Numbered from the stretch's first letter, positions 2,359-22,933 are shown. The stretch: DNA of 64,000 nucleotides from Rhodospirillaceae bacterium (GCA_002737725.1 NSIP01000001.1:272921-336920), one strand, 5' to 3'. Notes: generated from the letters alone by a model not told the origin. Numbers and translations are program-made.

Positions 2359-2497
2359 CGTGAGCGCCTCAAATCACGACCCCGACAGGATAGTGTATTA
2401 TATTTATATCAGCAGGCCCTTGGCGCACCATCATCTAATCACTATGGTTTAGGCATCTAAACGCTCAGCAACAGCGATTACATTGGGGGAGGGAAAC

Positions 2498-3433: not shown

Positions 3434-3442
3434 GCAGTTGCC

Positions 3443-4357: not shown

Positions 4358-4363
4358 CTCCAG

Positions 4364-6749: not shown

Positions 6750-7967
6750 TTAAAGAATCTTCGCAGCCTCGCGAGCCATATTAATCAGCGCTGAGTTCAT
6801 CAGAAACGCTTTGTGACGCAACGGGTCGTCAGCTGTGCGGCGCAATTCCTCGAAGCGCAGATTTGCCGCCATCTTATCCTTGGCCTGGAGCGTCTCTTTG
6901 TTCTGAATTGACTGAGCCTGTACGTACTTCTGTGCCAGCGGCCTTCGCTGGCGATCATATAAGTCGAACACATCGTCTTGGGCCTCGCCCCGCCAAACCG
7001 CCGTTAATTTTTGCGCGAGATTCAGCCCATCGGCGATGCCCGAATTCATACCCATGCCGCCTAAGGGGTTGTTGATGTGCGCGGCATCTCCCGCCAGCAT
7101 CACGCGACCTTTACGGAACGCCACCGCCACGCGCTGATGCACGCTGTAGAGGTTGCGGTGAATAATCGCGGTGTCGCGCGCATAAGGAAAACAATAGTCA
7201 TAACGCGCCCGAATCCATTCGTCTGACGTCGCCTCGCTCTCGGGCGCATCGCCGATCACCGGGAATAAATTCCGCCACATGCCTTTGCCGTCGGGGCCAG
7301 GAATTTTGAACACCGAGCACCACTGTTCGGGGTCGGCAATGTAGTTGCGATAGCGGTAGTCGTCGGCTTTTTCGAAATCAAACAATGTCGCGACAATGAT
7401 AAACCGCTCTTCCCAGGTGAAGCCGGGAAAGTCGATGTCTTGGGATTTTCGCACAAAGCTGCGCCCGCCATCACACCCCACCACATAGCGCGCCGTCCAA
7501 TTTTGTTTTCCCCCATCGGGGGTTTCGGTCACAACGCGCACATGGTCGGCACCATTCTCAACCTCCACAACCCGATATTCGCGGTGAAGCGTGAAGTCGG
7601 GGTATGCCCGCAGCATGTCTTGCGCAATGGCGACGGTTTTGTGTTGCTCCAGTTGCACAGCGTAAGGGTGGTTGGTTTCGCCCGCCAATCGCGCGAAATC
7701 AAATTCAGCAAAGACCTCGTTGGTCTCGCGGTAGCGGTATTGAAAATATTGCGCCCTCAACCCTTGGGCCAGAATGGTGGGCGTCATGCCAACGCCGTCC
7801 AACAGATCGAGCGTTGATGAATGTGTGGTGGCAGCGCGATGCGCGGTAGGCGTTTCCTTCTCGGCATCGAACTGGATGACCGGAATGCCCGCTTGCGATA
7901 ACGCCAGGGCGGTAATACTGCCCACGGGCCCTGCGCCCGCGATGATGATGCAATCTCGTTCAGACAT
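6750..7967 (-). CDS. FAD-dependent monooxygenase (aromatic-ring hydroxylase type)
   Basis: N-terminal dinucleotide fold IIIAGAGPVGSITALAL, a DG motif (CDGGRS), and the C-terminal GRVMLAGDAAHINNPLGGMGMNSG motif. Confidence 0.88.
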   Translation of the reverse strand: MSERDCIIIAGAGPVGSITALALSQAGIPVIQFDAEKETPTAHRAATTHSSTLDLLDGVGMTPTILAQGLRAQYFQYRYRETNEVFAEFDFARLAGETNHPYAVQLEQHKTVAIAQDMLRAYPDFTLHREYRVVEVENGADHVRVVTETPDGGKQNWTARYVVGCDGGRSFVRKSQDIDFPGFTWEERFIIVATLFDFEKADDYRYRNYIADPEQWCSVFKIPGPDGKGMWRNLFPVIGDAPESEATSDEWIRARYDYCFPYARDTAIIHRNLYSVHQRVAVAFRKGRVMLAGDAAHINNPLGGMGMNSGIADGLNLAQKLTAVWRGEAQDDVFDLYDRQRRPLAQKYVQAQSIQNKETLQAKDKMAANLRFEELRRTADDPLRHKAFLMNSALINMAREAAKIL

Positions 7968-7970
7968 CAG

Positions 7971-9422
7971 TTACAACATAATATGAACAGATTTCGCCTG
8001 AGTATAGCTCAGCAACTCATCTAGCGATTCTTCGCCGCCAAAGCCAGAATTTTTAACGCCCCCAAAGGGTAGCCCAACGAAATGCATGCCCGAGCCATTG
8101 ATCGTCACCACGCCCGATTCAATGCGCTTGGCGGTCGTGAGCGCTTGGGTGATGTCATGGGTGAAAATACCCGTGGTTAGGCCGTAGTCCGTGCTGTTCG
8201 CGATGCTGATGGCTTCATCCACCGTGGCCCACTTGGCAATCGTCATCACAGGCCCGAACACTTCTTCACGCGCGATGGTCATATGCGGGGTCACATCGGC
8301 AAACACCGTGGGCTCGATCCAATAGCCGCGCTTGAACATCTCGCCCTTGGGCCGCCCGCCGCCCAAAATCAGTTTTGCTCCTTCGCTTTTGCCCGCCTCG
8401 ATCAAGGCCATTATGCGTTTGTAATGCCCGATGGAATTGACAGGCCCCATGTCTGACGCTGGGTCCAGTGGGTCGCCGAGCTTTAAAGCTGCCACCTTGG
8501 CCTGCGTCAGCTCGATGGCGCGGGCATACAGTGACTCGTGAACCAACAATCGGCTGGTGGACCCGCAACTCTGCCCGGCCCACGAGAAGTTCATACCCGC
8601 CACGGCCGCATCAACAGCTTTGTGGATGTCCGCGTCGGGGAATACGATCAGCGGGTTTTTCCCACCCAGTTCCAAAGTCACGTGTTTGACAGAGGTTTCT
8701 GCCGCTGCGCGTTGAATGGCCAGGCCCGTGGCGACCGAGCCGGTAAATCCGATGCGGCGAATTTTGGCGTGGCGAACCAACGCATCGCCCACGGGTAATC
8801 CATAACCCGAGACAATATTCACCACGCCTGCGGGCAAAATTTCTTGGCAGACCTCACCCAATAGATGTCCCGACAAAGGGCTGGTCTCGGGGGTTTTGAT
8901 CACCACCGTATTCCCGGCCATCAACGGTGCGGCCAAGTGCGCGCCTGCGAACATAAACGGATGGTTGAACGGCACAATCCGCGCCACCACACCGTAGGGC
9001 TCACGCAAGGTGAAGTGCAGTCCCGTGGCCGAGGCTGGCACCGTGTCGCCCTTCATTTCAGTCCCTAGGCCCGCAAAGTATTCCAAGTATCCAGCCGCGA
9101 TTTCCACATCGGCGCGCAACTTCGCAATGGTGTTGCCGGTATCGGTGGCTTCCATGGTTAAAATCTCTTGGGCTCGCACGCGAAACCCCGCGGCGACTTT
9201 GCGCAGCAAGGCGCCGCGCTCCCAAATCGATTTCTGTTTCCACCCGCTTTGCGCGCGCTCAGCGGCATCGACCGCGCGATTGACGTCATCTTTGGTGCCC
9301 GCAGGCACACGGCCAATCTCGGCCTCGGTGGCGGGGTTAAGCGATGTAATCCAGGCATTGTCGCTGGCAACGGCAAAGGCGCCGTCAATCAGCATGGGCC
9401 GATCGCAAAATTGGTGAGTCAT
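7971..9422 (-). CDS. NAD(P)-dependent aldehyde dehydrogenase
   Basis: 483 aa with the ELGGKNP and FSWAGQSCGSTSR (catalytic Cys) motifs and a C-terminal GVKNSGFGGE. Confidence 0.93.
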   Translation of the reverse strand: MTHQFCDRPMLIDGAFAVASDNAWITSLNPATEAEIGRVPAGTKDDVNRAVDAAERAQSGWKQKSIWERGALLRKVAAGFRVRAQEILTMEATDTGNTIAKLRADVEIAAGYLEYFAGLGTEMKGDTVPASATGLHFTLREPYGVVARIVPFNHPFMFAGAHLAAPLMAGNTVVIKTPETSPLSGHLLGEVCQEILPAGVVNIVSGYGLPVGDALVRHAKIRRIGFTGSVATGLAIQRAAAETSVKHVTLELGGKNPLIVFPDADIHKAVDAAVAGMNFSWAGQSCGSTSRLLVHESLYARAIELTQAKVAALKLGDPLDPASDMGPVNSIGHYKRIMALIEAGKSEGAKLILGGGRPKGEMFKRGYWIEPTVFADVTPHMTIAREEVFGPVMTIAKWATVDEAISIANSTDYGLTTGIFTHDITQALTTAKRIESGVVTINGSGMHFVGLPFGGVKNSGFGGEESLDELLSYTQAKSVHIML

Positions 9423-9517: not shown

Positions 9518-11173
9518 TTACGGTTGGTCCAATAGATTTTGCGGAAACTCGGTGAATTTCATCTTGGTTGGCCCTTTGTCAGCCAGGCCCAACCTTAAAG
9601 CTCCCGGGTTCATCAAATTTTTGGGGTCTAACGCCGCTTTTATATTTTTAACAAACGCCAGCGAGGCCGACGATAGGCTATTGGCATAGGGGTAGAACTT
9701 ACCCACCTGAAAATGTGCCGCGCCGAACGTGCCCCACAACAAAACAAGATCACGTCGCAATGTGGTCACCGCTTCTCGTGCAGTCGGGTTCGGCGAGCTC
9801 GCCGCAAAATCGCGGCGCTGATCGTCGGTGATATGGCGCAGGTGGAACGCGTTTAACCGATCTTTCCAAAACAGCATCGGCTCAATCAAAAAAGCGCTAC
9901 CGACAGCCCCTGTCAAGTACGACACTTTAATATCGTGCTTCTTCATCAGGTCACGGTGGCGGACAAAGTATTCATCGGTCACCGCAACAATTTCAGCCGC
10001 GCGCGAATAAGGAAACAGGCCATGTACCGGCAGCCAGTTATCGCCGTCATGGCCGAGTAAGGATTTGATGGCACGGAAGGGTTTGGCGCGCGTAATTTGG
10101 GGAATCGTACTTGGCAATTCTTTCAGCGCCAACGGCACCAGAATGCGCCTGGCCTGGCCGATTTTCATCTCAACGTCTTTGGCCGAGGTGCCCTCGACAA
10201 CCAGATGCAACGCAAAACCGCCTCGCGAAACCGAACGGTGTCCGTCAATCAGCGTGCGGGCAATGGTGGCCATTTTCTGGCCCATGCCGTTCTTCACAGC
10301 CGCGACCTCGCGTACAAACGAAAGCCCTTCGAGGAATTTGAACCCACGCGCGGCCAGGTTTTCGTTGCCTTGCGGGTCAATCCCCCATTGCTCGGCGACG
10401 ATGTTTTCACGCGCTAAGGCCACATGCGCCTCGGCAATGTCTTCGAAGCGCTCGAAGGCGAAGGATAAGTAATCTTCCGCTGCCGGAAAGGGGATCAGCC
10501 GCAAGGTCACGTGGGCTTTGATACCAAATGCCCCGCAGTCACCTAAAAATACGCCGGTTAAATCGGGCCCAAAATACCGGAAGAAGGGCGTGCGGCCTTC
10601 CGCGCAAGCCGCACCCGTTTCCACCAGCGAGCCATCGGCCAAAACCACATCCACGCCCAGCACGCTATCGGCCATGGCCCCGTACGTGCCCGCGCCATAG
10701 AACGAGGCATTGTTGCTAGCTGCGCCACCAACTGTCGAATGCAGGCCTGAGAGTGGGCCGAAGTAGGGCGTGCGCAGGCCCTTGGCCTTCAGGGCGTCGT
10801 ATAGCGTTGCCCACGTGCAGCCAGACTCGACCGTCACATAGCGATCAGTTTCATTGATTTCGACAATGCGATTCAGATCAGTGGTGTCGATAATCGCCGA
10901 AGGTGATTGGGTTGCAAGATATCCGCTCGTGTAGGAAAAGCCCGCACCGCGCGCAATCACCGCAATGTCGGCCCGTGTTAGTAACGCAACAGTACGCGCC
11001 AGGTTATCGACGGACTCAGGCTTCACGATCACGCCGGGCCGCGTATCGGCTTCACCAGAAATGTCGGTGGCGTAATACGCTAACTGCGGCGGGTCCGTCA
11101 TCACGCGCGCATTGCCAACGATATCGCGCAGGTCGGCCAGAACTTGAGTTGGAATTGTAGAGTTAATTGTCAT
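9518..11173 (-). CDS. FAD-linked oxidase (PCMH-type FAD-binding domain)
   Basis: 551 aa. The N-terminal region with ARGAGFSYTSGY and the following Gly-rich stretch fits FAD_binding_4-type oxidases. Substrate is unknown. Confidence 0.75.
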   Translation of the reverse strand: MTINSTIPTQVLADLRDIVGNARVMTDPPQLAYYATDISGEADTRPGVIVKPESVDNLARTVALLTRADIAVIARGAGFSYTSGYLATQSPSAIIDTTDLNRIVEINETDRYVTVESGCTWATLYDALKAKGLRTPYFGPLSGLHSTVGGAASNNASFYGAGTYGAMADSVLGVDVVLADGSLVETGAACAEGRTPFFRYFGPDLTGVFLGDCGAFGIKAHVTLRLIPFPAAEDYLSFAFERFEDIAEAHVALARENIVAEQWGIDPQGNENLAARGFKFLEGLSFVREVAAVKNGMGQKMATIARTLIDGHRSVSRGGFALHLVVEGTSAKDVEMKIGQARRILVPLALKELPSTIPQITRAKPFRAIKSLLGHDGDNWLPVHGLFPYSRAAEIVAVTDEYFVRHRDLMKKHDIKVSYLTGAVGSAFLIEPMLFWKDRLNAFHLRHITDDQRRDFAASSPNPTAREAVTTLRRDLVLLWGTFGAAHFQVGKFYPYANSLSSASLAFVKNIKAALDPKNLMNPGALRLGLADKGPTKMKFTEFPQNLLDQP

Positions 11174-11883
11174 GTCCGTCCTAAATAGGCTTCGCGTACT
11201 TTCGGGTCGCGCAACAATTCAGCACTCGTCCCAGTGGCGACAATTCGGCCGGTCTCGAGCACATAGCCGCGCGTGGCAAGTTTAAGTGCGAGCGTAGTGT
11301 TTTGCTCCACAACCAGCACCGTAACGCCTTGTGCGGCGATATCTGAGATTCGTGCAAACACATCGTGGGCAATTTTCGGGGCAAGCCCCAAACTCGGTTC
11401 GTCCAGCAGCAGCATTTTGGCCCGTGCCATCAGGGCTCGGCCAATGGCCAGCATTTGCTGCTCGCCACCCGACAACGACCAGCCCCGTTGTTCGCGCCGT
11501 TCGTTCAGGCGTGGCATAAAGGTGTAGACCTTCTCAAGGTCTGGCGTCAGGTCTGCGGTGGCACCCGCCCAGGCGCTGGCGGCGACCTTGAGGTTTTCTT
11601 CAACCGTAAGCCCACCAAAAATTCGCCGACGTTCAGGCACATGGATCAATCCCTGCCGCACACGGGCTTCGGCACTGAATTTTGATAAGTCGTTGTCGGC
11701 CAAGGTCATGGACCCAGCCGTGGGTTTTACGAGGCCTGACAGCGTGCGCAGCAGGGTGGTTTTTCCAGCACCATTGGCCCCCAGCAACGCAACGGTTTCA
11801 CCCGCTGCAATGGTCAGGCTGACGTTACTGATCGCTTGCACAGCACCATAGCGCACATCAAGGGCGTCGATTTTAAGCATCAA
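11170..11883 (-). CDS. Branched-chain/HAAT-family ABC transporter ATP-binding protein (LivF-like)
   Basis: Walker A GANGAGKTT, signature LSGGEQQM, Walker B LLLDEPSLGLAP. It overlaps both neighbouring genes. Confidence 0.9.
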   Translation of the reverse strand: MMLKIDALDVRYGAVQAISNVSLTIAAGETVALLGANGAGKTTLLRTLSGLVKPTAGSMTLADNDLSKFSAEARVRQGLIHVPERRRIFGGLTVEENLKVAASAWAGATADLTPDLEKVYTFMPRLNERREQRGWSLSGGEQQMLAIGRALMARAKMLLLDEPSLGLAPKIAHDVFARISDIAAQGVTVLVVEQNTTLALKLATRGYVLETGRIVATGTSAELLRDPKVREAYLGRT

Positions 11884-12646
11884 CAGCCTCGGTGCCTAAA
11901 TAGGCCTCGATCACTTTGGGGTTGGCGCGAACCTCAGCGGGTGTCCCCTCGGCAATTTTTTCACCAAAATTCAGCACGGCAATGCGCTCGGCCCACGCCA
12001 TCACCAAGCTCATGTCGTGTTCGATCAGCACAACAGCCAGGCCTTCAGACTTAAGGTCTTTGAGCGCCCTCACCAATGCCACACGCTCGCCGCTGTTCAA
12101 GCCCGCTGCTGGTTCATCCAGCAAAATAATGTTGGCCTCAGCCGCCAAGGCCCGCGCAATCTCGACGTTACGTTGCACGCCAAATGGCAGTTGCGAAATT
12201 TCCGCATCGCGCATGGCCCATAGGTCAAGTTTTTTCAGCGCGGTTTCAGCGCGCGCTCGCAAAGCGTCTTGCCAGCGATCATAAAATCCACGCCGCAGCA
12301 CAACATCAATCAGTCGCGCTCCTTCACCGGGGCAGCCGCCCGCCATGACGTTTTCCAAAACTGTTAGGCGTTGAAAAAGTCTTCCGTTTTGGAATGTGCG
12401 GGCCATGCCTAAGCGTCGCAGACCATGCGCGGGGCTATTGGTAACGGACGTGTCATTCAAAAAAATCTCTCCGTCGGTCGGTGACATCAATCCTGACAGC
12501 AAATTTAAGAATGTGCTTTTACCCGCCCCATTGGGCCCGATCACCGCAAAGGCTTCGCCAGCGTTCACCGACAACGACACGCCGTTCACAGCCACCAGGC
12601 CGCCGAAGGTTTTGGTGAGTTTGCGTGTTTCCAGAACCGTGGTCAT
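11873..12646 (-). CDS. HAAT-family ABC transporter ATP-binding protein (LivG-like)
   Basis: Walker A GPNGAGKST and Walker B IILLDEPAAGLN. A start at ATG 12646 gives an ATGA overlap with the LivM-like stop (the track ORF starts at 12667). Confidence 0.9.
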   Translation of the reverse strand: MTTVLETRKLTKTFGGLVAVNGVSLSVNAGEAFAVIGPNGAGKSTFLNLLSGLMSPTDGEIFLNDTSVTNSPAHGLRRLGMARTFQNGRLFQRLTVLENVMAGGCPGEGARLIDVVLRRGFYDRWQDALRARAETALKKLDLWAMRDAEISQLPFGVQRNVEIARALAAEANIILLDEPAAGLNSGERVALVRALKDLKSEGLAVVLIEHDMSLVMAWAERIAVLNFGEKIAEGTPAEVRANPKVIEAYLGTEAVDA

Positions 12647-13644
12647 GGCGAAGCCGCTCTGCCACACCAGCGCTGCAATAGCCCCGCCAAGCCTTTGGGC
12701 AGCGCCATTAATACGATTAGCGTAATCAAGCCGTAGAACACCAAGTAGCCGTCTTTCAGCAACCGCGCGATCAGGTCTTTCTCGCTGCCGCCCGCCGCCA
12801 CGTAACCTGCAGCCAAGTCACGCAGAAGCTCGGGCAGGAACGTTAAGGCAATCGCACCCAAGATCGCGCCGATGACCGAAGCTTCACCCCCCACCACCAG
12901 CATCATCAGGAACAGAATCGATTGTGACACGGCAAAATCCGACGGCGAAATAAAGCCGGTGTAGTGTGCGTAGAGCGTACCCGACAACGCGCCGATGACG
13001 GCGGACAACGTAAAAGCAATCACCTTGACCCGGCCCACATCAATGCCAATGGTCAGCGCTGCGGTTTCATCGTCGCGCACCGCAATCATGGCCCGGCCCA
13101 AGTGCGAGTGGCGCAAGCGCAGCGCAATCCATACGACAACCAACGCGGCAACGCTGACGATGGGGATGAACGCTTTTTCTGGCGCCATACCAGGCATCAT
13201 GTCGGTCAGGCGCGGAATGCCTGTCACGCCATTATAACCGTTGGTCACCTCAACCCAGTTTTTGGCGATCAACTCCAAGATCACGTTCACGCCCACCGTC
13301 GCCAGCGCCAGGTAATGCCCTTTCAGCCTGATCAGCGGCAGGCTAACCAGCAGCGCAAAACTGGCAGCGGCGATCATGGCCACGGGAATACTGATGGCCA
13401 TGGGCCAGCCGAGCTTTACGGTGGCTAACGCCGTCACATAGGCACCGATGCCAACAAATGCGGCCTGGCCCAGATGAATAATGCCGCAATATCCAAACGC
13501 AAGATTAAGGCCAATGACAGTGATGACATTGAGCAGCGCCAAGTTCAGCAGGCGCAAGCTATAGCCTTCCAGCAAAACCCCAGCGCTAGCCAAAAGAAGT
13601 GCAGCAACGGCCAGCCAGATCCACTGTTTGCTTTGCGCGCTCAT
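12643..13644 (-). CDS. HAAT-family ABC transporter permease (LivM-like)
   Basis: 333 aa, highly hydrophobic with many TM spans, with a GQAAFVGIGAY motif. It overlaps the upstream fusion gene by 4 nt. Confidence 0.88.
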   Translation of the reverse strand: MSAQSKQWIWLAVAALLLASAGVLLEGYSLRLLNLALLNVITVIGLNLAFGYCGIIHLGQAAFVGIGAYVTALATVKLGWPMAISIPVAMIAAASFALLVSLPLIRLKGHYLALATVGVNVILELIAKNWVEVTNGYNGVTGIPRLTDMMPGMAPEKAFIPIVSVAALVVVWIALRLRHSHLGRAMIAVRDDETAALTIGIDVGRVKVIAFTLSAVIGALSGTLYAHYTGFISPSDFAVSQSILFLMMLVVGGEASVIGAILGAIALTFLPELLRDLAAGYVAAGGSEKDLIARLLKDGYLVFYGLITLIVLMALPKGLAGLLQRWCGRAASP

Positions 13645-16600
13645 CCGCGATCTCCGCGCGATTCGCCGAACAAGCCTTGTGGGCGCGCCACCAGGAACCC
13701 AACCATCAGCAAAAACACCAGCGCGTCTTTATACGTGGACGACACATAGGCAGCACCCAGCGACTCAGCCAGGCCCACAATAATGCCGCCCAACACCGCG
13801 CCCGGGACACTGCCAAAGCCGCCGATGATGGTGGCGGCAAAACTTTTCAACGCCAAAGCATCACCCATGCTGCTATCGACAAACCACACGGGCCCCATCA
13901 GCAAACCACCCAAGCCTGCCAATCCGCCCGCTAGCGCCCAGGTCAGCGCATAAATACCTGCGACATTGATGCCCATCAGTTTGGCGGCCTCAGCGTCTTG
14001 GGCGACAGCACGCATGCGTGCGCCCAGAACCGAGCGATACAGCAGCACATAAAGCCCGGTGACGACGATCATGGTAATGACGATCACGGCCAAAATGTGC
14101 GCGGAGACGACAACCCCACCCAACGACAACGGCGCCACACCGAATGGCGAGGGCAAGCGTTGTGGCAATGGCCCCCAAATCATTTGCCCGATATTTTGTA
14201 CAATAATGCCCACAGCAATGGTGCCGACAATCACGGTCACGACAGGGCTTTGTTGCAGTGGTCGGTAGACCACAAAGAAAAATAAAATGCCCAGACCAAT
14301 CATGCCGACTAGCGCCAAGATGGTTCCGGGCACCACTGCTCCTAGGCCTGAAATCATCGAAATGCCTAAGAACGCACCGATGACCACAAATTGCCCGGCG
14401 GCAAAGTTCACAACCCCCGTGGCCTCGTAGACCAACACAAACCCCAGCGCCAACAACGCATAGATGCAGCCAATCGCTAAGCCATTGAAGATGGTTTGCA
14501 GCAGTCCTTTCAATTGAGATGGGCGTTCTTGTGATGCGGATGTCGACACAGGTTGCGCAGCGATTGTCGCTGTCTCTGACGTAATCGCAAAATTGCGGAC
14601 TAGCGTGAACTCTTTTGTGCCGGGTGTGAATTTGATAATGGCAGCCGAGTTGCCAAGGTTGCCAAAGCGATCAGTCGTATAGGTGCGCGTGATGCCTGGC
14701 CGGTCTTTCAGCGCGGCGAGGTAGCCTTGGATCGCTGTGGGTGCAATGCCAACTGTGCGCAAGCCATTGGCCAGAATCATCGCCGTATCATAATAGTTCG
14801 TCACGAACGATGCATCAGCAGGAATGCCAAATCGTGTCTGATACCGGCCCAGGAAATCGGTTGGGTCGAAAGCGCGTCGGTCGGGCAAATACGAATCAGT
14901 GACAGCGTATGCCCCATCAATGTCCTCGGCTGAAATCAGCGACATGACCGATGGCAATGCAAGTGTGGTGTTGGCAACGATAGGAAGTGTGATGCCGAGC
15001 GAGCGTCGCGCGCCTAGCATCAGCCCCATATCGCGCACATAACTGACCGCAACAATGACATCGGCGCCTTGGCCGATGACGCTGAGAAGATGCGAGCCGA
15101 AGTCGTTTTCGTCTAAGGGGTAGGATTCGACGATGGGCTCAGCCCCGGCAGCGCGTAACAGGCGCGTCATCTCGGCGGCCATGCCCTGACCATAATCGTT
15201 CTGGGCGTAGAGAATCGCTGGCTTGGCGCGCTTCACATCGCGCAGCAGAATATCAACCATCGCCGCGGCCACCACGCTATCGGGTTGCTTGATGCGAAAC
15301 ATCCACGGGTTGCCCAGTTGGTGTAAGGCATCGGCGCCGCCGGCATACAGCGTTGGCAGTGCTGCGCGCCGCACTTCAGGCTCGACGGCAAAATTTTGCG
15401 GCGTAAAGCTTGAGACAAACATCGCCACAGGGTTTTGCTCCTGCACCGTTTTCACAAACGCCGAAACGGCAGTGGAGTTCGATGATTGCGCGTCCTCAAA
15501 GGCAAAGCGCACCTGAACACCACCAATGCCACCGGCAGCGTTGATATCCTCTTCAGCTATTTTCAGGGCGTTGTAGTACAGCAACCCCGACGTGGCTGAT
15601 GACCCGGTAATGGGAACGGTGGCACCGATCACGATTTCCTTGAGATCAGCCATGGGCGCGGGCGTCGCTGCTTTCGGGGCATCGGTGAACGCGCGCATGG
15701 GAATTTGCGTTTTGTTGTCGCCATAGCGCACGATGACCACACTGTTAGTCATGTTGCCTTTAGCATCGGCGGTATAGCTGCGCGTCAGGGCGTCGAAGTT
15801 TTTTAAACTTGCGACAAAGTCGCGCACTTTCTTTGGGTCTTCGCCTACCTGACGAATGGCTGCGGCGATAATCCACACCGCATCGTAGTAGTTGGTAATG
15901 AACGACGGATCGGGTTTCAGGTTGTGGCGCTGTTCATAGCGGCGAATAAAATCAGCCTTGTCGTAGGCGCCACGTTCGCTTAGCAACGCATCGACCAGCG
16001 CATACACATTCTGAAGTTCGGCCGGTTCCAGCAAGTCGGTGGTCGCCGACACACCCAAGGCCTGCTGACCAACAACGGGCAATGTGATGCCCAAGGCTTT
16101 GCGGGCGCGCAGCACCAGGGCTGAATCGCGGTTAAAGCCCGCGGTCAGTAAAACATCGGCGCCTTGGTTCACCAGGCTTTGCAATTGCGCCGACATATCG
16201 TTGTCGCTTGGGCCGTAGGATTCTTTGATCAGCGTGATGCCTTGTGCGGCGAACAGCGCGTCTAACTGACGCGCAAAGCCCTGGCCGTAGTCGTTCTGCA
16301 CATAAATCAGGCCGGGCTTTGATTTTTTCAGATCATCCAGCACAACGCTGGCCACAGCTTTGGTGTTCACCTGATCGGGCGGCTTAATGCGAAACAGCCA
16401 CGGGTTATTCAAATCCTCGATCTCGGTCGCACCGCCGGCATGCATGGCACCAATCGCGGCGCGAGAAATTTCCGTGGCCTGGGCCAGAATTTGAGGCGAA
16501 TAACTTGAAATGAGCATAAACGGTGGTTTGTGCTGTTGCACCAGTTTCACATAAGCCGTCACGGCGCTTGAGTTCGACGAGCCCGCGTCTTCGTTGATCA

Positions 16601-16823
16601 GGCGTAGTTTTTTGCCGTTCACACCCCCCGCGGCATTGATGTCTTCCACAGCCATCTCCAAGGCATGGAAAACCGTTAGCCCCGTAGCGGCGAGTTGCCC
16701 GGTCACGGCGCAGGTCGCGCCAATAATAATTTCATCAGATGCTGGTGTTTGCGCGCGTATAGGCCCTATCAAACCCAACAGCACGGCAACTATTGTGCAC
16801 CAAACTGCACAAAACTGTCTCAT
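13641..16823 (-). CDS. Fusion protein: signal peptide + two tandem Leu/Ile/Val-type periplasmic binding domains + LivH-type ABC permease domain
   Basis: One uninterrupted 1060-aa ORF. aa 1-24 look like a signal peptide. aa ~30-385 (nt ~16736-15669) and aa ~400-755 (nt ~15626-14559) are paralogous SBP repeats. aa ~776-1060 (nt ~14498-13644) are a LivH-like multi-TM permease ending in GLFG. Confidence 0.85.
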   Translation of the reverse strand: MRQFCAVWCTIVAVLLGLIGPIRAQTPASDEIIIGATCAVTGQLAATGLTVFHALEMAVEDINAAGGVNGKKLRLINEDAGSSNSSAVTAYVKLVQQHKPPFMLISSYSPQILAQATEISRAAIGAMHAGGATEIEDLNNPWLFRIKPPDQVNTKAVASVVLDDLKKSKPGLIYVQNDYGQGFARQLDALFAAQGITLIKESYGPSDNDMSAQLQSLVNQGADVLLTAGFNRDSALVLRARKALGITLPVVGQQALGVSATTDLLEPAELQNVYALVDALLSERGAYDKADFIRRYEQRHNLKPDPSFITNYYDAVWIIAAAIRQVGEDPKKVRDFVASLKNFDALTRSYTADAKGNMTNSVVIVRYGDNKTQIPMRAFTDAPKAATPAPMADLKEIVIGATVPITGSSATSGLLYYNALKIAEEDINAAGGIGGVQVRFAFEDAQSSNSTAVSAFVKTVQEQNPVAMFVSSFTPQNFAVEPEVRRAALPTLYAGGADALHQLGNPWMFRIKQPDSVVAAAMVDILLRDVKRAKPAILYAQNDYGQGMAAEMTRLLRAAGAEPIVESYPLDENDFGSHLLSVIGQGADVIVAVSYVRDMGLMLGARRSLGITLPIVANTTLALPSVMSLISAEDIDGAYAVTDSYLPDRRAFDPTDFLGRYQTRFGIPADASFVTNYYDTAMILANGLRTVGIAPTAIQGYLAALKDRPGITRTYTTDRFGNLGNSAAIIKFTPGTKEFTLVRNFAITSETATIAAQPVSTSASQERPSQLKGLLQTIFNGLAIGCIYALLALGFVLVYEATGVVNFAAGQFVVIGAFLGISMISGLGAVVPGTILALVGMIGLGILFFFVVYRPLQQSPVVTVIVGTIAVGIIVQNIGQMIWGPLPQRLPSPFGVAPLSLGGVVVSAHILAVIVITMIVVTGLYVLLYRSVLGARMRAVAQDAEAAKLMGINVAGIYALTWALAGGLAGLGGLLMGPVWFVDSSMGDALALKSFAATIIGGFGSVPGAVLGGIIVGLAESLGAAYVSSTYKDALVFLLMVGFLVARPQGLFGESRGDRG

Positions 16824-18364
16824 GCCATCGCTCGCAATTCGGTTTTCAAAACTTTGCCATTGGCATTGCGGGGCAGGGCGGTCACAACCTGAATATTCTT
16901 CGGAATTTTATAAGCCGACAGCTTGCCCTCACAGAATTGAACAAGTCCATCGGTGCTGAGTGTTTTTTCAGGTTTTAAAATCACAAAGGCCTTCAAACGC
17001 TCGCCCCATTTGTCGTCAGGAATGCCCACCACTGCCACATCGGCGATGGCCGGGTGGCCGAGCAAAACTTCTTCGATCTCGCGGGGGTAAATATTCACGC
17101 CACCCGAAATCACCATGTCCTTCTTGCGGTCGACAATATAGATGAATCCTTCCGCATCGCGCTTGGCAATATCACCCACCGAAACCCAACCCTCTTTGAA
17201 GGTTTCGGCGGTGTCTTTCGGGCGGTTCCAATAACCGTTAAAAAGATAAGGCGAAAGGCTTAGCAACTCGCCTGGCACGTCGGGCGGGCATTCGGTGCCA
17301 TGTTCGTCGACAATCTTGACCAGCGTGCTCAGGAACGGGGTGCCCACGCATTGTTGTTTGCGTAGCTGATCGGGTGGCCGAAGGTTTGTCACCACGCCAC
17401 CTTCTGTTGAACCATAAGTTTCATGCAGTTTACCCTCACCGAAATAGGTGACGATTTTGTGTTTCATGGCTTGGGGCAGAGGGGCTGCGTTAGAGATAAT
17501 CGTGCGAATCTGCAAACCTTTGCACTCATGCAAAATATCTGGGGCAAGGCTGAAAAGTTGATGAAACTGTGTTGGCACCATGAACACGCCCGAGAACGCA
17601 CCGCTTTTTAAACGTCGCAGCAATGTCTCCGCATCAAACTTATCCATAAACTCCATGTATCCGCCGCCAAACAGCGCGGCCATGGGAAAGCAAATACCTG
17701 CCCCATGGTTCATCGGCGTGGTGCCCAGGAATTTATCATCGGGCCCGTAACAGCCGTACTCTAAGGCCATGCCCATAAAGGTGAAAAGGCGCGAGCGGTG
17801 CGACACCAACACACCTTTGGGTTTGCCGGTGGTGCCCGATGTATAGGGAATCGTCCACACATCCCATTCATCAACAACGGGCCGTGTCGCTGCGGCTTCG
17901 CCGTGCGCTAACCACGCCTCATATTCATCACCGATCTCAATAATACGCGTCACGGTTTTGAACGCGCAGCCGCGCACAACGGCTTGATTGCTGGCATCGC
18001 AGAACACCACTTTGGCTTCGGCATCATCGCAGATGGCAATCATCTCTGCGGGCATTAGGCGCGGGTTGACGGTGGCCACCGCCACACCGGCTTCGGGCAC
18101 GCCACATACAATCTCAATATACTCAATGCAGTTGCGGGCAATGATCGCTGCGTTATCGCCCTTCTTCAATTTCAGATTGTTGATGGTTGCGTTGGTGACT
18201 AAATCAACGCGGCGCACAAGTTCGCCATAGGTGCGTTGAACATCATTGTACCCCACGGCTACTTTGTTGGGTGAGCGCATCATGGTGGCCCGCAATGCGC
18301 TCGCCATGGTCATGGATTGAAATCCAACCGGCAACGTCACAGTTCTGGTCGATGTGGCGGTCAT
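16820..18364 (-). CDS. AMP-dependent acyl-CoA synthetase/ligase
   Basis: AMP-binding motif YTSGTTGKPKGV, a GYWNRP region, and a C-terminal KIPK..LPRNANGKVLK. Confidence 0.92.
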   Translation of the reverse strand: MTATSTRTVTLPVGFQSMTMASALRATMMRSPNKVAVGYNDVQRTYGELVRRVDLVTNATINNLKLKKGDNAAIIARNCIEYIEIVCGVPEAGVAVATVNPRLMPAEMIAICDDAEAKVVFCDASNQAVVRGCAFKTVTRIIEIGDEYEAWLAHGEAAATRPVVDEWDVWTIPYTSGTTGKPKGVLVSHRSRLFTFMGMALEYGCYGPDDKFLGTTPMNHGAGICFPMAALFGGGYMEFMDKFDAETLLRRLKSGAFSGVFMVPTQFHQLFSLAPDILHECKGLQIRTIISNAAPLPQAMKHKIVTYFGEGKLHETYGSTEGGVVTNLRPPDQLRKQQCVGTPFLSTLVKIVDEHGTECPPDVPGELLSLSPYLFNGYWNRPKDTAETFKEGWVSVGDIAKRDAEGFIYIVDRKKDMVISGGVNIYPREIEEVLLGHPAIADVAVVGIPDDKWGERLKAFVILKPEKTLSTDGLVQFCEGKLSAYKIPKNIQVVTALPRNANGKVLKTELRAMA

Positions 18365-18374
18365 TCAGGATGAT

Positions 18375-19277
18375 CTACCGGGGGATTTTTTTGAAAATGC
18401 GCAAGGCGTTTTCGCGCATCATGAGTTTATGCGCTTCAGGCCTTAGGCCCAGCTCAGCCACCTCGGTAACGGCGCGCTCGGGGTCAATCACCGGCCAATC
18501 GGTCCCAAACAAAACTTTTTCTTTGCCATAACTATTCGCATAATGAACATAAGACTTGGGCCAGTGCTTGGGCGCATAGGCATCGCCTGCCGTAAACACA
18601 TTCTCATGTTTCCAGCACATGGAAATCATTTCCTCGGTCCACGGCACGCCGATATGAATGCCGATCAACGCCAACTCGGGAAAATCAATCGCCACCTGAT
18701 CGAGCAAGATGGGCTTGGCCACGGAAGGCAAACGCCGGTCTTTTTGGTAAACGAGGTTATGCCCCACCTGCATCATGATCGGGATGTCGAGTTCGCAGCA
18801 CTTGGCATAGTACGGGTAAATTAGTGGTGCGTCGGGCGGCATCGAAAACCAATGGGGGTACCAATGAGCCCCGACAAAACCAAACTCTTTGACGCCGCGT
18901 TCAAGGTCGCGCAGACCTTGCATCCCACGCGTAGGGTCGACCCCCGCTAAGCCTGAAAAGCGATCTGGGTACTGGCGGCAAATCTCGGCCACCATTTCAT
19001 AGGGCACTTCGAACGAGCCCCGTACCCGCAAATCACCCGCACGCACCGCAATCAGCAGCGAGCGTTCAATCCCCGCACGGTCCATCTTTTTCAAATAGTC
19101 CGCCATTCTCACACCCGGTCGCATGGCGGGTGGCATGCGCACCTGGACCTTGAAATTTTCATCCACGCCAGTGCGGTTTTCCCGCACGGCTTCAGGTGTG
19201 AAGACGTTACAAACGATATCGATAAAACCTGCCACAATTGCCTCGAATTGAAGATGGATTGTTCCTGACGTCTGCAT
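18375..19277 (-). CDS. Amidohydrolase-2 family protein (ACMSD-like decarboxylase/hydratase fold)
   Basis: GAHWYPHWF and LFGTDWPV motifs. The start is uncertain: TTG 19298, ATG 19277, or GTG 19235 behind GAGG. Confidence 0.75.
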   Translation of the reverse strand: MQTSGTIHLQFEAIVAGFIDIVCNVFTPEAVRENRTGVDENFKVQVRMPPAMRPGVRMADYLKKMDRAGIERSLLIAVRAGDLRVRGSFEVPYEMVAEICRQYPDRFSGLAGVDPTRGMQGLRDLERGVKEFGFVGAHWYPHWFSMPPDAPLIYPYYAKCCELDIPIMMQVGHNLVYQKDRRLPSVAKPILLDQVAIDFPELALIGIHIGVPWTEEMISMCWKHENVFTAGDAYAPKHWPKSYVHYANSYGKEKVLFGTDWPVIDPERAVTEVAELGLRPEAHKLMMRENALRIFKKIPR

Positions 19278-19442
19278 TCTTAGCGACCTGCTGACCAATC
19301 ATAAAGGGGATCGCTGCCGGTCTGCTCGTGGAGCGGGCTTAATCTGTGTTTTTGGCCGCGTGCACGGGGTATGGTATCGAACAGTTCTGGGCGTGGCTTT
19401 ATATCTTATCTATTCCCAACTTTAGGCAGGGGTGCGGCATTG

Positions 19443-21185
19443 ATGCGTTACCATCTATGGATATATACCGCGCTAGCGGCGGCAACAGGCCTGAGTGGCT
19501 CATTCGCCTCGGCCCAAGACCTTGTCTTTCCTGAAGCGGCCACGGGCCGATATCAAAAATCGGGCGGTGAAGCCAAAAAATTTATGGTGGCCGCCGCAAA
19601 CCCTTTGGCCGTTAAGGCGGGCGTCGACATCCTCAAGGCGGGCGGCAGCGCAGCCGATGCAGCCGTGGCGGTGCAGACCGTCCTGAACATGGTCGAACCA
19701 CAATCATCGGGCATCGGTGGCGGCTCGTTTATTCTGTTCTGGGACAACAAAGCCAAAAAACTCACCACCTATGATGGCCGTGAAACTGCTCCGGCAGCGG
19801 CAACCGAGCGGCGCTTTTTAACCGCTGAAGGCAAATCCATGGACCGCACCACGGCTATCATTGGGGGGCACTCGGTTGGTGTGCCCGGCACGCTGCGCGT
19901 GTTGGAGTTGGCACAAAAGAAACATGGAAAGCTGACCTGGGCCAAATTGTTTAACCCCGCTATTAAAATTGCGACAGATGGCTTTGCGCTGTCACCGCGT
20001 GTGCATGAATTGATTGTGGGCGACCGCTCGCTTAATAAATTGGAACCTGCGAAGTCGTTCTTCTATCAAACGGATGGCACCGCCAAAGCTGTTGGCACCA
20101 TCATCAAAAACCCTGCCTTTGCTGCAACGCTTAAAACCATCGCGACCAAAGGGGCCGATGCATTTTATACCGGCCTCATTGCAGCCGACATTGTGCGCGC
20201 AGCAACAACAGCCGCCATCAACCCCAGTGATATCACGCTGGCTGATCTCAAGAGCTACAAGGCGATTGAACGCGCACCGATTTGTTTGCCCTATCGCGAT
20301 CGCAAGGTATGCGGCATGGCGCCACCCACGTCGGGCGGTGTGGGCGTCCTGCAAACGCTCGCGATGCTCGAGCCCTTTGATCTGGCGCAGATGGGCCCAG
20401 ACTCTGTGAAGTCTAAGCACGTATATATCGAGGCCAGTCGCCTGACCTTCGCTGATCGTGCCGTTTATATCGCCGACCCTGATCTGTTGCCCATTCCGAC
20501 AGCAGAACTGTTATCACCCGATTATTTAAAATCTCGCGCCCAATTGATTAAGCTCGATCAACGAATGACCACCGCCGAAGCTGGTCAGTTGCCCAAAAAA
20601 GCCGCACTCAACTGGTCGCCCGCCGCGAGCCCCGAAAAAGAGTCGACTAGCCATTTTTCCATCGTTGACGCTGATGGAAATGCGGTGGCCATGACCACGT
20701 CAATCGAGGGTGGCTTTGGCTCGCACGTCATGGTGGATGGATTTTTGCTCAATAATACGCTGACGGATTTTTCCTATTCCGACATTGCATCGGGTAAAAC
20801 GGTGGCCAACGCCGTTGGCCCCAACAAACGCCCGCGCAGTTCCATGGCACCAACGGTTGTGTTCGACAAAGATGGTAAACTGGAAATGGTTGTGGGTTCG
20901 CCGGGCGGCCCGGCTATCGTTGGCCTTGTCGCGCAAACACTCATCGGCATGATCGATTGGAACATGACGCCCCAAGATGCCATTGCCTCACCGCATGTGG
21001 TGGTGTTCGGCAACGCCGTGAATATTGAACCCGAGTTAGCCCTGATCAAAGCCGAGCTTGAAGCCTTGGGCCATCAGGTGCGTATTGGTGAATTACCATC
21101 AGGCATTCACGCCATCCGCATCACCGCCAATAGCTTACTGGGCGGTGCCGACCCAAGGCGCGAAGGCACAGTCGGCGGCGAATAA
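19443..21185 (+). CDS. ggt: Gamma-glutamyltransferase
   Basis: Start set at ATG 19443, giving a signal peptide MRYHLWIYTALAAATGLSGSFASA. Autoprocessing/catalytic site TSHFSIVDADGNAVAMTTSIE, plus GSPGGPAI. Confidence 0.93.
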   Translation: MRYHLWIYTALAAATGLSGSFASAQDLVFPEAATGRYQKSGGEAKKFMVAAANPLAVKAGVDILKAGGSAADAAVAVQTVLNMVEPQSSGIGGGSFILFWDNKAKKLTTYDGRETAPAAATERRFLTAEGKSMDRTTAIIGGHSVGVPGTLRVLELAQKKHGKLTWAKLFNPAIKIATDGFALSPRVHELIVGDRSLNKLEPAKSFFYQTDGTAKAVGTIIKNPAFAATLKTIATKGADAFYTGLIAADIVRAATTAAINPSDITLADLKSYKAIERAPICLPYRDRKVCGMAPPTSGGVGVLQTLAMLEPFDLAQMGPDSVKSKHVYIEASRLTFADRAVYIADPDLLPIPTAELLSPDYLKSRAQLIKLDQRMTTAEAGQLPKKAALNWSPAASPEKESTSHFSIVDADGNAVAMTTSIEGGFGSHVMVDGFLLNNTLTDFSYSDIASGKTVANAVGPNKRPRSSMAPTVVFDKDGKLEMVVGSPGGPAIVGLVAQTLIGMIDWNMTPQDAIASPHVVVFGNAVNIEPELALIKAELEALGHQVRIGELPSGIHAIRITANSLLGGADPRREGTVGGE

Positions 21186-21195
21186 TGATATCGGC

Positions 21196-21783
21196 TTATT
21201 TTTTAGCGTCGGGCTGGGCGATTTCGATCAAACGTCCGTCGGGGTCGTACACAAACATGCGTTGGCCCGCACTTGTGGTGCCGTCGGGTCGATTGACGGT
21301 AAACTTGTAGGGCGTGCGGTGGAAGCGCACATCGATTTGCTGCAGCCGGCTGTAGGTGGCCTGAATGTCTGCCACTTCCATCATAATAATCGCATCACCC
21401 GTGCCGATGCCCATTAAATTACCACGCGCACTGGCGAGCTTCGGTTTGTCATAACTTAGTAAACCGATCATGCCGATGCGCTCGTCGTTGCCTTTCATAA
21501 TAACGATACGACCAACTTTCGGATCTTCGGTCAGTGGCAAATCAGCCGCACCGATCACACCATCGGGTGAGTTCGAATCGCTGGCCGCATCGTACCATTT
21601 GGTCAGCCCCAGGCGTTGGTAGAAGTCCATGGACTTCTCGAGGTTATCAACCAGCAACGTGGTGCGTCTGACCGCCGTAGCCTGAAGTGCGGTCGAGCGC
21701 TCTTGTGCTGCCGCGCTCAGCGCCGATAACGCCATCACAATGGCGGCAACGCCACCAAGGCAACGAAGACTCAGACGCGTCAT
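21196..21783 (-). CDS. VOC (glyoxalase/bleomycin-resistance/dioxygenase) family protein with signal peptide
   Basis: Start set at ATG 21783 (MTRLSLRCLGGVAAIVMALSALSAAAQE). LLVDNLEKSMDFYQRLGL is typical of the VOC fold. Confidence 0.72.
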   Translation of the reverse strand: MTRLSLRCLGGVAAIVMALSALSAAAQERSTALQATAVRRTTLLVDNLEKSMDFYQRLGLTKWYDAASDSNSPDGVIGAADLPLTEDPKVGRIVIMKGNDERIGMIGLLSYDKPKLASARGNLMGIGTGDAIIMMEVADIQATYSRLQQIDVRFHRTPYKFTVNRPDGTTSAGQRMFVYDPDGRLIEIAQPDAKK

Positions 21784-21875
21784 GGGGGGGGGATCCTTGC
21801 GTTTCAAAATACCAACTTGCCACGGCCCACCACTCCAGGGAAAGTGCCGTTTATAGAACCTCAGAAGATATGCTC
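21784..21875 (-). repeat. Degenerate copy of intergenic repeat family 1
   Basis: In gene sense it reads TAA|GAGCATATCTTCTGAGG...CACTTTCCCTGGAGTGGTGGGCCGTGGCAAGTTGGTATTTTGAAACGC, immediately after the cupin gene stop. Confidence 0.35.
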
Positions 21876-22727: not shown

Positions 22728-22933
22728 ATTCCCTCCAAAGTGCCACCTTGCCACATTGGCGCGGCAGAAAAGCGAATGAAACGCCAAGTCTTGTCGGTTT
22801 TGTGTCCAATAGTTGTCCGCGGCTGCGAAATAGGGCCCGACGCCCCTGAGTGCCGCCTCTCGTCCTGTTAATGATGGTCCAAGACCCGGATCAAGCGGGC
22901 CAAGTCTCTTCTGTATGGCAGATTTTTACTCCA

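Follow-up and report, generated by a model that had tools for sequence, protein, structure and literature searches.

A LivH-type permease fused to two tandem substrate-binding domains in a predicted HAAT-type importer of freshwater alphaproteobacteria

Introduction

Among ATP-binding cassette (ABC) importers, domains for substrate binding (SBDs) with a covalent link to the translocator are described, in the full-text literature that we searched, only for GlnPQ and OpuA, and the usual explanation for the tethering in these Gram-positive systems is that the cells have no outer membrane. Here we analyse a fusion of this kind in a 64,000-nucleotide stretch of DNA from a Rhodospirillaceae bacterium (GCA_002737725.1, NSIP01000001.1:272921-336920; hereafter the window, in whose numbering coordinates of its features are given), where one open reading frame (ORF) encodes two tandem SBDs and a LivH-type permease of the HAAT (LivHMGF) family. 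A preliminary description of the same DNA had known of no characterised example in this family, in agreement with our search of the full-text literature (TCDB, InterPro and one 2002 chimera review lying outside it), in which SBD-permease fusions of the HAAT family are nowhere described.

In GlnPQ, two identical GlnP chains provide four binding sites per complex, and the linker between the two SBDs of a chain measures 14 residues, or about 25 in homologues (PMC8025302). OpuA of Lactococcus lactis, a member of the OTCN family, forms a homodimer in which each chain bears a single SBD, attached through a short linker that is neither conserved nor structured (PMC11065425). In the Liv system of Escherichia coli the two alternative receptors of a single translocator, LivJ and LivK, each have a gene of their own and occur free in the periplasm.

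Domain architecture of the fusion protein

The fused gene occupies positions 13641-16823 on the minus strand and is, as the preliminary description had stated, a single uninterrupted ORF of 1060 amino acids with an ATG start and no internal stop codon. Its division into two binding domains and a LivH-type membrane domain is borne out by profile searches with Pfam, NCBIfam and hidden Markov models (HMMs) of the family, Pfam recognising Peripla_BP_6 twice (E 2.6e-85) and BPD_transp_2 at residues 778-1043 (E 3.5e-38). The borders of SBD1, SBD2 and the membrane domain given below were set with HMMs built from the fusion's own family. SBD1 comprises residues 27-370 (15714..16745, minus strand; independent E-value, i-E, 1.9e-184) and has a Peripla_BP_6/LIVBP-type fold (cluster B), with further Pfam matches to ANF_receptor at 53-337 and Peripla_BP_5 at 34-347. 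SBD2 follows at residues 392-735 (14619..15650, minus strand; i-E 1e-178), its best Peripla_BP_6 stretch lying at 396-707. The two domains are paralogous, as had been proposed, and align without gaps over 337 residues at 44% identity (BLASTP, E 4e-109), with the motifs EDINAAGG, NPW.FRIK.PD and QNDYGQG and the equivalents of Y150 and D121 common to both. The LivH-type membrane domain, assigned to BPD_transp_2 and also matched by the family HMM, makes up residues 770-1060 (13644..14516, minus strand).

The remaining segments are a leader and two linkers. Residues 1-24, MRQFCAVWCTIVAVLLGLIGPIRA (16752..16823, minus strand), are predicted from sequence and hydropathy to be a Sec-type signal peptide: the hydropathy maximum of 2.36 spans residues 1-25, and the hydrophobic stretch closes with a signal-peptidase-type I-R-A motif and is followed by QTP. 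In a multiple alignment the N-terminus of the tandem homologues is hydrophobic in all, its sequence being unconserved. Linker 1 (about residues 371-391; 15651..15713, minus strand) is rich in Ala and Pro, varies in length and is 25-34% identical between orthologues. Linker 2 (about residues 736-769; 14517..14618, minus strand), RNFAITSETATIAAQPVSTSASQERPS, connects SBD2 to the first transmembrane helix (TM1) as a Ser/Thr/Ala-rich tether (S, T or A at 14/27 residues) that is 27-42% identical between orthologues. The signal-like N-terminus and Ser/Thr/Ala-rich linker of the preliminary description are thus both found, and the domain junctions that it had placed at about 15626-15669 and 14498-14559 fall at or beside the two linkers.

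Among NCBIfam models, LivH (E 3.8e-35) and the LIV-binding-protein subfamily match the fusion best, with scores below the equivalog cut-offs: 122 bits against 379 for the LivH model PRK10740 and 120.6 bits against 477 for the LIV-binding-protein model PRK15404. Judged by its sequence, the fusion protein is Liv-like and is not an orthologue of E. coli LivJ/LivK or LivH.

Genes for a complete translocator follow on the same strand with overlapping stops and starts, as had been noted, and their identities rest on both Pfam and NCBIfam. The LivM-type second permease (333 aa; 12643..13644, minus strand; BPD_transp_2 E 9.7e-45; NCBIfam LivM/UrtC-like, E 1.4e-42) starts on the stop codon of the fusion (ATGA) and is syntenic across all fusion loci. 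The LivG-type ATPase (ABC_tran and BCA_ABC_TP_C; NCBIfam LivG E 2e-70) is listed with 264 aa (11873..12667, minus strand), its true start probably lying slightly downstream, since the listed GTG overlaps LivM by 25 nt and homologues are called at 255-257 aa. The LivF-type ATPase (237 aa; 11170..11883, minus strand) carries the same two Pfam domains (NCBIfam LivF E 8.5e-73). The operon was further said to have no free binding-protein gene, and indeed no other ORF matching the family SBD profile was found anywhere in the 64-kb window. With a LivH-type permease, a LivM-type permease, LivG and LivF ATPases and a cluster B receptor, the system belongs by all four component criteria, as read from sequence, to the HAAT/LivHMGF transporters (TC 3.A.1.4); uptake itself is predicted.

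Authenticity of the fused reading frame

A long ORF of this kind might have arisen through a chimeric join, a collapsed duplication or the loss of a stop codon between an SBP (substrate-binding protein) gene and livH during sequencing or assembly, and the nearest relatives in cultured bacteria do keep SBP and livH as separate genes. We judged this from assembled sequences and gene calls. When 5.8 billion proteins were searched through a word index, the matches comprised one protein that is 100% identical to the fusion, 11 further tandem proteins of 1048-1074 aa (63-85% identity) and about 12 proteins of 666-726 aa with one SBD and the permease. The identical copy sits in a separate Logan assembly. 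The tandem assemblies stem from different sources (JGI, NCBI, ENA and Logan), and the tandem gene was independently called on contigs of 4.44, 3.50 and 2.43 Mb as well as in the Logan assembly, these calls sharing the precomputed Pfam string Peripla_BP_6, Peripla_BP_6, BPD_transp_2. When the tandem proteins are aligned, every one of them crosses the domain junctions in frame, and the linkers differ in both length and sequence. For the four tandem loci of the genome scan described below (L001-L004), the fused ORFs were checked in the DNA.

The only internal DNA repeat of the fusion gene is a 33-nt stretch across the shared NPW(L/M)FRIK motif, so that we see no sign of artefactual duplication. 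Against L001-L004, dN/dS amounts to 0.05-0.17 for SBD1, 0.07-0.19 for SBD2 and 0.05-0.08 for the membrane domain, ratios that are approximate because dS is saturated, and the signal peptide and both linkers are merely 5-42% identical. In three of these loci (L001, L002 and L004) SBD1 is 84-86% and SBD2 71-78% identical to the window protein, with an SBD1 dN/dS of 0.05-0.09. Constrained binding and membrane domains joined by drifting linkers are, as far as sequences can tell, the pattern expected of three functional domains on flexible tethers. With the same in-frame architecture shared by 12 or more distinct sequences whose samples and assemblers are independent, megabase contigs included, with an identical protein in a separate assembly, with ORFs verified in DNA, without a long repeat and with purifying selection on all three domains, we reject an assembly artefact, which we regard as exceedingly improbable.

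Predicted structure and topology

An AlphaFold2 model computed on a 24-sequence alignment (mean predicted local distance difference test score, pLDDT, 75.7; predicted template-modelling score, pTM, 0.43) gives block-mean pLDDT values of mostly 70-94 for SBD1 and mostly 79-94 for SBD2, which drop below 50 at linker residues 383-390 and 750-768. The membrane domain reaches only moderate confidence, and the relative positions of the domains in the model are therefore not meaningful. Foldseek places both SBDs with the LIV-type cluster-B binders 4gnr, 3td9 and 4n0q at target TM-scores of 0.85-0.88.

The preliminary description had asked whether both SBDs are periplasmic and whether TM1 enters from the outside, and the helix count of the model together with the positive-inside rule favours this arrangement. 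After the tether the model shows nine long helices and additional short helices at 932-949; 9-11 transmembrane segments have been predicted for HAAT membrane proteins in a survey (PMC3654945). The Arg/Lys-rich loop 930-953 is the predicted cytoplasmic coupling region. If the N-terminus lies outside, the Lys and Arg residues on the inside number 4 in this loop and 3 in the C-terminal tail, with R854 in addition, and the outside loop 884-907 holds 1. Unfused homologues start two or three residues ahead of TM1, and in many lineages a large periplasmic domain is accommodated at this N-terminal site, which fits a LivH domain with its N-terminus outside. We thus predict from the model that the N-terminus of the LivH domain is outside and its C-terminus inside, both SBDs being periplasmic. 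No match to the LivH domain was found in a 2026 copy of the PDB, either with the single sequence (E <=1e-5) or with a 25-sequence profile (E <=1), so that this topology remains a prediction and the LivH-type permease appears to be without any solved structure.

Comparison with described transport systems

In the order of its parts (signal sequence, SBD1, short flexible linker, SBD2, linker, membrane domain) and in having two paralogous SBDs with different properties, the fusion resembles GlnPQ, its inter-SBD linker being about 20 residues long. It lies outside the GlnPQ family proper (PAAT, TC 3.A.1.3), as Pfam gives Peripla_BP_6/5, ANF_receptor and BPD_transp_2 only: the SBDs have a LIVBP-type Peripla_BP_6 fold (cluster B), unlike the cluster F-IV domains of GlnPQ, and the permease is BPD_transp_2, unlike that of GlnP, which we take to be BPD_transp_1. 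Because the translocator is heterodimeric, with LivH paired to an untethered LivM, tethering here is one-sided and yields two SBDs. The hosts differ as well, being represented by alphaproteobacterial metagenome-assembled genomes (MAGs) of diderms, whose periplasm would retain a free SBP. By analogy, then, the window system works like GlnPQ without being a member of its family. The tethered-receptor design is present in that SBD and membrane domain share one polypeptide, the outside location of the SBDs being predicted from the model; of the tandem design, two intact SBDs under purifying selection are seen, each type of which is fused alone in relatives, and both may serve the translocator. OpuA likewise has its receptor covalently tethered to the translocator, but its SBD and membrane domain belong to other families, in addition to the single SBD per homodimer-forming chain, and its osmoregulatory gating has no counterpart here.

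The translocator itself, with LivH- and LivM-type permeases and LivG and LivF ATPases that carry the BCA_ABC_TP_C tail, is like that of E. coli LivJ/LivK-LivHMGF, as are the receptor fold and the provision of two alternative receptors for one translocator. Unlike LivJ and LivK, the receptors are part of the LivH chain; the NCBIfam equivalog scores lie far under their cut-offs, and the alpha-ammonium-binding Glu226 is not conserved in the SBDs of the window. Unfused sister operons share the gene order and, with SBD2, a Ser at the E226-aligned and an Asp at the T102-aligned position; in contrast to the fusion they have a stop codon and 16-90 nt between SBP and livH, one receptor and other flanking genes. 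The single SBD-LivH fusions of metagenomes have Peripla_BP_6 and then BPD_transp_2 in one chain, with only one SBD. The aromatic-acid SBPs of Rhodopseudomonas palustris (4evq/RPA0668, 4ey3 and 3tx6, with benzoate derivatives) have the same fold (TM-score about 0.81-0.85), whereas their sequence similarity is weak (E about 1e-6) and they are free periplasmic proteins; a Liv-type transporter that would serve organic-acid catabolism beside a CoA ligase is an idea common to both.

Distribution of tandem, single and unfused forms

An exhaustive HMMER search of 1.84 billion representatives, one per 50%-identity cluster, returned among its best 150 matches one protein longer than 900 aa (P0008), the representative of the tandem clade's single 50%-identity cluster. 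Any distant tandem fusion would be expected to score clearly higher than the 164 bits at which these best 150 end. Single SBD-LivH fusions, recognised by a junction-spanning alignment or by Pfam, occur in at least 14 other such clusters at 28-61% identity to the window protein, their sources including Blastocatellia, a gammaproteobacterial MAG and Myxococcales (for example P0021, P0026, P0028, P0030, P0037, P0042, P0045, P0054 from Blastocatellia, P0060, P0064, P0087, P0100, P0112 and the myxococcal P0199/P0200). Single fusions at 44-66% identity are syntenic relatives of the window locus; most, at merely 28-33% identity, may on sequence grounds be independent fusion events. In the databases the fusions bear generic names such as 'ABC transporter substrate-binding protein' or 'branched-chain amino acid transport system permease protein'. 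One of them, P0054 (707 aa, from a Blastocatellia MAG and a cluster of 8; 28% identity), has a lipoprotein-like signal (…LLSCQKG), and might be lipid-anchored as well as membrane-fused, or its signal might simply be cleaved. Fusions of LivH with LivM also exist (P0055, P0070, P0099, P0110, P0133, P0143 and P0151, of 612-648 aa), two BPD_transp_2 domains in one chain being confirmed by Pfam for P0055 and P0070.

We scanned one genome per GTDB species and checked the DNA of 80 candidate loci with our own SBD and membrane-domain profiles. Truly fused loci numbered 9 (4 tandem, L001-L004, and 5 with a single SBD), SBP and livH being separate genes in all others, and L001-L004 all derive from 'Rhodospirillaceae' MAGs, one of them from deep Lake Baikal. 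Unfused sisters in Bradyrhizobium, Methylobacterium, Microvirga, Bosea and Bordetella (L008, L010, L012, L013, L016, L020 and L063) have the gene order SBP-livH-livM-livG-livF, with an SBP gene of its own whose end lies 16-90 nt ahead of livH, and are 42-46% (SBP) and 54-55% (LivH) identical to the window protein. Apparent fusions in Bradyrhizobium, Methylobacterium, Microvirga and Bosea were rejected, as tblastn had merged neighbouring genes that the ORF check shows to be separate. Coverage figures from a tblastn scan can thus mimic fusions, and matches of about 2.9-3.0 kb in L008, L013, L015 and L020 (Microvirga, Methylobacterium) even resemble tandems, where SBP, livH and livM are really separate.

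The tandem form is therefore rare and restricted to one clade, the single fusion sporadic and the unfused operon the norm. Within a small group of freshwater alphaproteobacteria the tandem fusion is conserved, and the orthologous fusions whose search the preliminary description had called for exist in independent assemblies with in-frame junctions. Only the tandem arrangement is rare; the idea of fusing receptor and permease is not unique to it, given the single SBD-LivH fusions in other clusters.

Evolutionary history of the two binding domains

Neighbour-joining trees separate the two SBD types. In the SBD tree (100 bootstraps), the SBD1 domains and the sole SBD of P0022 form one clade (100%), the SBD2 domains and those of the single fusions P0014-P0021 and P0023 another (100%), which P0024 joins with 72%, and the unfused SBPs a separate one (96%). 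SBD1 and SBD2 are therefore, by sequence, old paralogues. The membrane-domain tree places the fused domains apart from unfused LivH, with P0022 as an early branch and P0013, which is 81% identical to the window protein and in which SBD2 is missing, within the tandem clade; in the SBD tree the SBD2-only P0014 and P0016 nest beside the tandem P0012. Natural SBD2-only fusions (P0014-P0021, P0023 and P0024) thus stand beside SBD1-only ones (P0022 and P0013), and from the tree positions of P0022, P0013, P0014 and P0016 we deduce that each SBD type can be the sole receptor on the permease and that domains were lost more than once.

We considered whether SBD1 was derived from a free SBP gene upstream of an SBD2-LivH gene and rejected this, since a PaaD/FeS_assembly_P-like gene (120 aa) and a Tat-signal Amidohydro_2 gene (about 395-400 aa, RRTAMQ...) are found there instead (L005 8301-9862, L019 8258-9951, L087 3047-4605 and L089 7407-8953, in the numbering of these loci). 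The tandem therefore did not come from the simple fusion of a neighbouring SBP gene in the SBD2-only arrangement, which has no free SBP gene upstream. The tandem loci are without this pair, and SBD1 takes its place in the gene order; the Tat-signal Amidohydro_2 protein is presumably periplasmic, to judge by its leader. The SBP gene that joined livH probably lay directly upstream of it, as in the unfused sisters, and a second SBD, of the other paralogue type, would later have been attached at the N-terminus. On the most economical reading, an early fusion of an SBP gene with livH through loss of a stop codon would have been followed by an old duplication into two SBD types, the tandem being either ancestral, with later losses, or built by recombination.

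Genomic context and ligand class

The fusion is embedded in a minus-strand unit with the gene order Amidohydro_2 protein (18375-19298), AMP-dependent CoA ligase (16820-18364), fusion, LivM, LivG, LivF, FAD-linked oxidase (9518-11173), aldehyde dehydrogenase (7971-9422) and PnpA/HspB-like flavin monooxygenase (6750-7967), the enzymes being assigned by Pfam and the monooxygenase also by its PDB neighbours. Most junctions overlap (ATGA or longer), namely ligase/fusion, where the ATG of the fusion is read directly in the sequence as part of an ATGA with the stop of the ligase gene, fusion/LivM, LivM/LivG, LivG/LivF and LivF/FAD oxidase; a 95-nt gap separates the oxidase from the aldehyde dehydrogenase gene. 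The three downstream enzyme genes are conserved together with the transporter.

The nearest solved relatives are FadD5 and feruloyl-CoA synthetase for the ligase, BB4693, LigJ and LigW for the Amidohydro_2 protein, D-lactate dehydrogenase and glycolate oxidase and, farther away, p-cresol methylhydroxylase (VAO/PCMH group) for the oxidase, and PnpA (3e-55) and HspB (6.5e-46) for the monooxygenase. Every NCBIfam match of the flanking enzymes lies far below its curated cut-off, and the PDB neighbours are too distant, so that naming a substrate from these enzymes was rejected. As a group they suggest, on sequence grounds, a pathway that breaks down an organic acid, perhaps of the phenolic or heteroaromatic kind.

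Which enzymes accompany which SBD was compared across loci that share a divergent upstream gamma-glutamyltranspeptidase gene and the downstream FAD oxidase gene. In every locus of this set with an SBD2-containing fusion, tandem (the window, L001-L004 and L081-L084) or SBD2-only (L005, L006, L019, L087 and L089), the Amidohydro_2 and AMP-ligase pair is adjacent, the ligase alone being visible on the short contig of L084. Both genes are absent and the FAD oxidase is kept in the SBD1-only loci L085 (P0022) and L086 (P0013; GCA_016793085.1, contig JAEUKM010000389.1, gene 2623-4719), in the latter of which SBD1 is joined directly to the permease. From its sequence context P0013, lying within the tandem clade, appears to have lost SBD2 and both enzymes together, and the pattern suggests that SBD2 serves the ligase/amidohydrolase branch and that SBD1 goes with the FAD oxidase kept by all these loci. 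A second homologue search, seeded with the SBD1-only P0022, retrieved no further SBD1-only fusions, and the argument still rests on these two loci.

For the binding pockets, LivK was mapped onto the SBDs at about 20% identity; the LivK numbering was verified on the sequence, and the roles of the LivJ/LivK pocket residues, including the pairing of Glu226 with the alpha-ammonium group of the ligand, are those of the LivJ/LivK structure papers. MAFFT and HMMER differ by 1-2 columns around LivK 77-80 and 100-103, where we followed HMMER, since its two independent alignments, one to LivK and one to 4gnr, are in agreement. The equivalent of LivK Tyr150 is Tyr in both SBDs and Phe in the unfused sister group; that of Thr102 is Thr in SBD1 and Asp in SBD2 and the sisters; that of Tyr202 is Phe in SBD1 and Tyr in tandem SBD2 and the sisters; and that of Trp18 is Thr in SBD1 and the sisters and Ser in SBD2. 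At the position of LivK Glu226 (Asp in 4gnr) SBD1 has Gln in 14/14 sequences, SBD2 Thr, Pro or Ser and the sisters Ser. The acidic residue of Leu/Ile/Val binders at this position is hence missing from both SBD types, a result that at this level of identity is indicative. The LivK-aligned positions 200-203 and 225-227 also differ by SBD type and are largely conserved inside each type. These alignments speak with moderate weight against alpha-amino acids as the ligands and against a common specificity of both SBDs. The different ligand specificities proposed in the preliminary description thus gain support from the type-specific pocket residues and from the co-occurrence of SBD2 with the enzyme pair. 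In sequence the SBDs are nearer to LIV-type amino-acid binders than to the solved aromatic-acid binders, and yet they do not have the acidic residue that holds the alpha-amino group.

Two features flank the cluster. A complete Opp/Dpp-type peptide ABC importer (808-6318, plus strand; an SBP_bac_5-like binding protein, 2 permeases and 2 ATPases) adjoins it, is syntenic in L002 and L004 and is preceded by a gene for a FAH-family hydrolase (55-789). Beyond the divergent gamma-glutamyltranspeptidase gene (19371-21185) lie two conserved, syntenic minus-strand ORFs (21876-22787 and 21196-21966), of which one encodes 303 aa with no NCBIfam match and a faint Cupin_7/DUF4437 match in a homologue, and the other a glyoxalase/VOC-family protein.

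Proposed mechanism and alternatives

We think it likely that the locus encodes a working HAAT (LivHMGF)-type ABC importer in which two different tethered receptors stand in for a free periplasmic SBP. By analogy with GlnPQ and the canonical LivJ/K-HMGF system, Sec would export the chain, its N-terminus crossing the inner membrane and its signal peptide being cleaved; SBD1 and SBD2 would fold in the periplasm as independent LIVBP-type clamshells with a flexible linker of about 20 residues between them, and a flexible Ser/Thr/Ala-rich tether of about 30 residues would lead into TM1 of LivH, which would enter the membrane from outside and be followed, after nine helices in all, by a cytoplasmic C-terminus. 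The LivH domain would pair with LivM and the ATPases LivG and LivF, so that the tethered receptors of a complex would number exactly two and would both sit on its LivH side. Each SBD would bind its ligand and close, and both would compete, like the two SBDs of GlnP (PMC8025302), for docking on the periplasmic face of LivH/LivM, where docking would trigger ATP-driven translocation. Given their distinct pocket residues and the linkage of SBD2 to the ligase and amidohydrolase, we think that the two SBDs deliver different, related organic acids, which are probably not alpha-amino acids, into one catabolic gene cluster.

Several observations weigh against this picture. Its support is wholly computational, from sequence, model and gene context. 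Confidence in the model of the membrane domain is low (block means of pLDDT about 40-79), which leaves the helix count provisional, and helix 984-1000, which is amphipathic and contains K993 and D988, is the weakest helix call. The node that joins all fused SBDs has 33-56% bootstrap, so that a single origin of the fusion is poorly supported. The co-occurrence pattern includes 2 SBD1-only loci, the related loci are phylogenetically non-independent, and the divergent SBD2-type fusion P0024 sits in an unrelated gene context without a ligase. The SBDs are, moreover, nearer in sequence to amino-acid binders (4gnr, E 3.5e-23, the best PDB match of SBD1; LivK, 1e-15; LivJ, 2e-13) than to solved aromatic-acid binders (about 1e-6), and the ligand argument leans on residue roles in LivJ/LivK and on alignments of about 20% identity in which the aligners disagree at two sites.

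Two alternatives concern the ligands. Both SBDs could bind the same one or ones, the tandem raising the local receptor concentration or widening the affinity range: many conserved motifs are common to both domains, a single catabolic cluster flanks the transporter, and the SBDs of GlnPQ overlap in substrate (glutamine) and differ in affinity (PMC8025302). Identity between the SBDs is, however, just 44%, with conserved type-specific differences at pocket-aligned positions; the two types have separate histories and are each found alone, and the loss of SBD2 accompanies that of ligase and amidohydrolase, SBD1 and the FAD oxidase remaining, all of which makes a shared ligand unlikely. The system could also be an ordinary importer of branched-chain or hydrophobic amino acids with fused LivJ/LivK-type receptors and flanking enzymes unrelated to its substrate. 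That would accord with the public annotation as a branched-chain amino acid transport protein and with the closest solved relatives, which are Leu/Ile/Val binders both by sequence (4gnr, LivK, LivJ) and by structure (4gnr and the Brucella protein 4n0q). We hold it to be decidedly unlikely in view of the equivalog scores far under cut-off, the replacement of the Glu226 equivalent in SBD1-type, SBD2-type and unfused sister domains alike, and the translational coupling of the transporter genes to the upstream CoA ligase and the downstream FAD oxidase, an order kept over 50-85% identity.

A further possibility is that SBD1 delivers no substrate but regulates, senses or acts as a spacer, or is in the course of being lost, and that the membrane-proximal SBD2 is the only true receptor. 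SBD1 is indeed distal and without Tyr at the Y202-aligned position, and SBD2 alone suffices in related lineages (P0014-P0021, P0023). But SBD1 is the better conserved of the two in L001, L002 and L004, with the low dN/dS given above, and an SBD1-type domain is the sole permease-fused receptor in P0022 and P0013, so that we consider an idle SBD1 very improbable.

Implications for the HAAT family

Domain fusion as such is common, and nothing here overturns the current view of ABC importers. The tethered design, its tandem form included, has arisen in another transporter family with other receptor and permease folds; in the HAAT family the tandem form is uncharacterised, and of the single SBD-LivH fusions that were already in the databases none is characterised either. 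Since these hosts possess a periplasm, keeping hold of the receptor cannot be the sole advantage of tethering. Testable, though speculative, alternatives are that it fixes a 1:1 stoichiometry, that it keeps receptors at a very high local concentration for little protein, or that it insulates the system from its many Liv-type paralogues. The forms with both SBDs, with SBD1 or SBD2 alone and without fusion constitute a natural deletion series that suits the study of receptor competition for a heterodimeric translocator. As no solved structure matched the LivH domain, a natural receptor-permease chain could also be a useful target for cryo-electron microscopy, and could yield the first structure of a HAAT transporter with a docked receptor.

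We put forward only tentatively, as a possibility in which we place limited confidence, that this is the first recognised tandem-receptor importer outside PAAT, an asymmetrically tethered HAAT transporter of diderm bacteria whose receptor domains are exchangeable modules, SBD2 being gained and lost along with the CoA ligase and amidohydrolase pair and SBD1 remaining with the FAD oxidase. If so, one translocator could be re-wired to different catabolic branches by the addition or the loss of a tethered domain.

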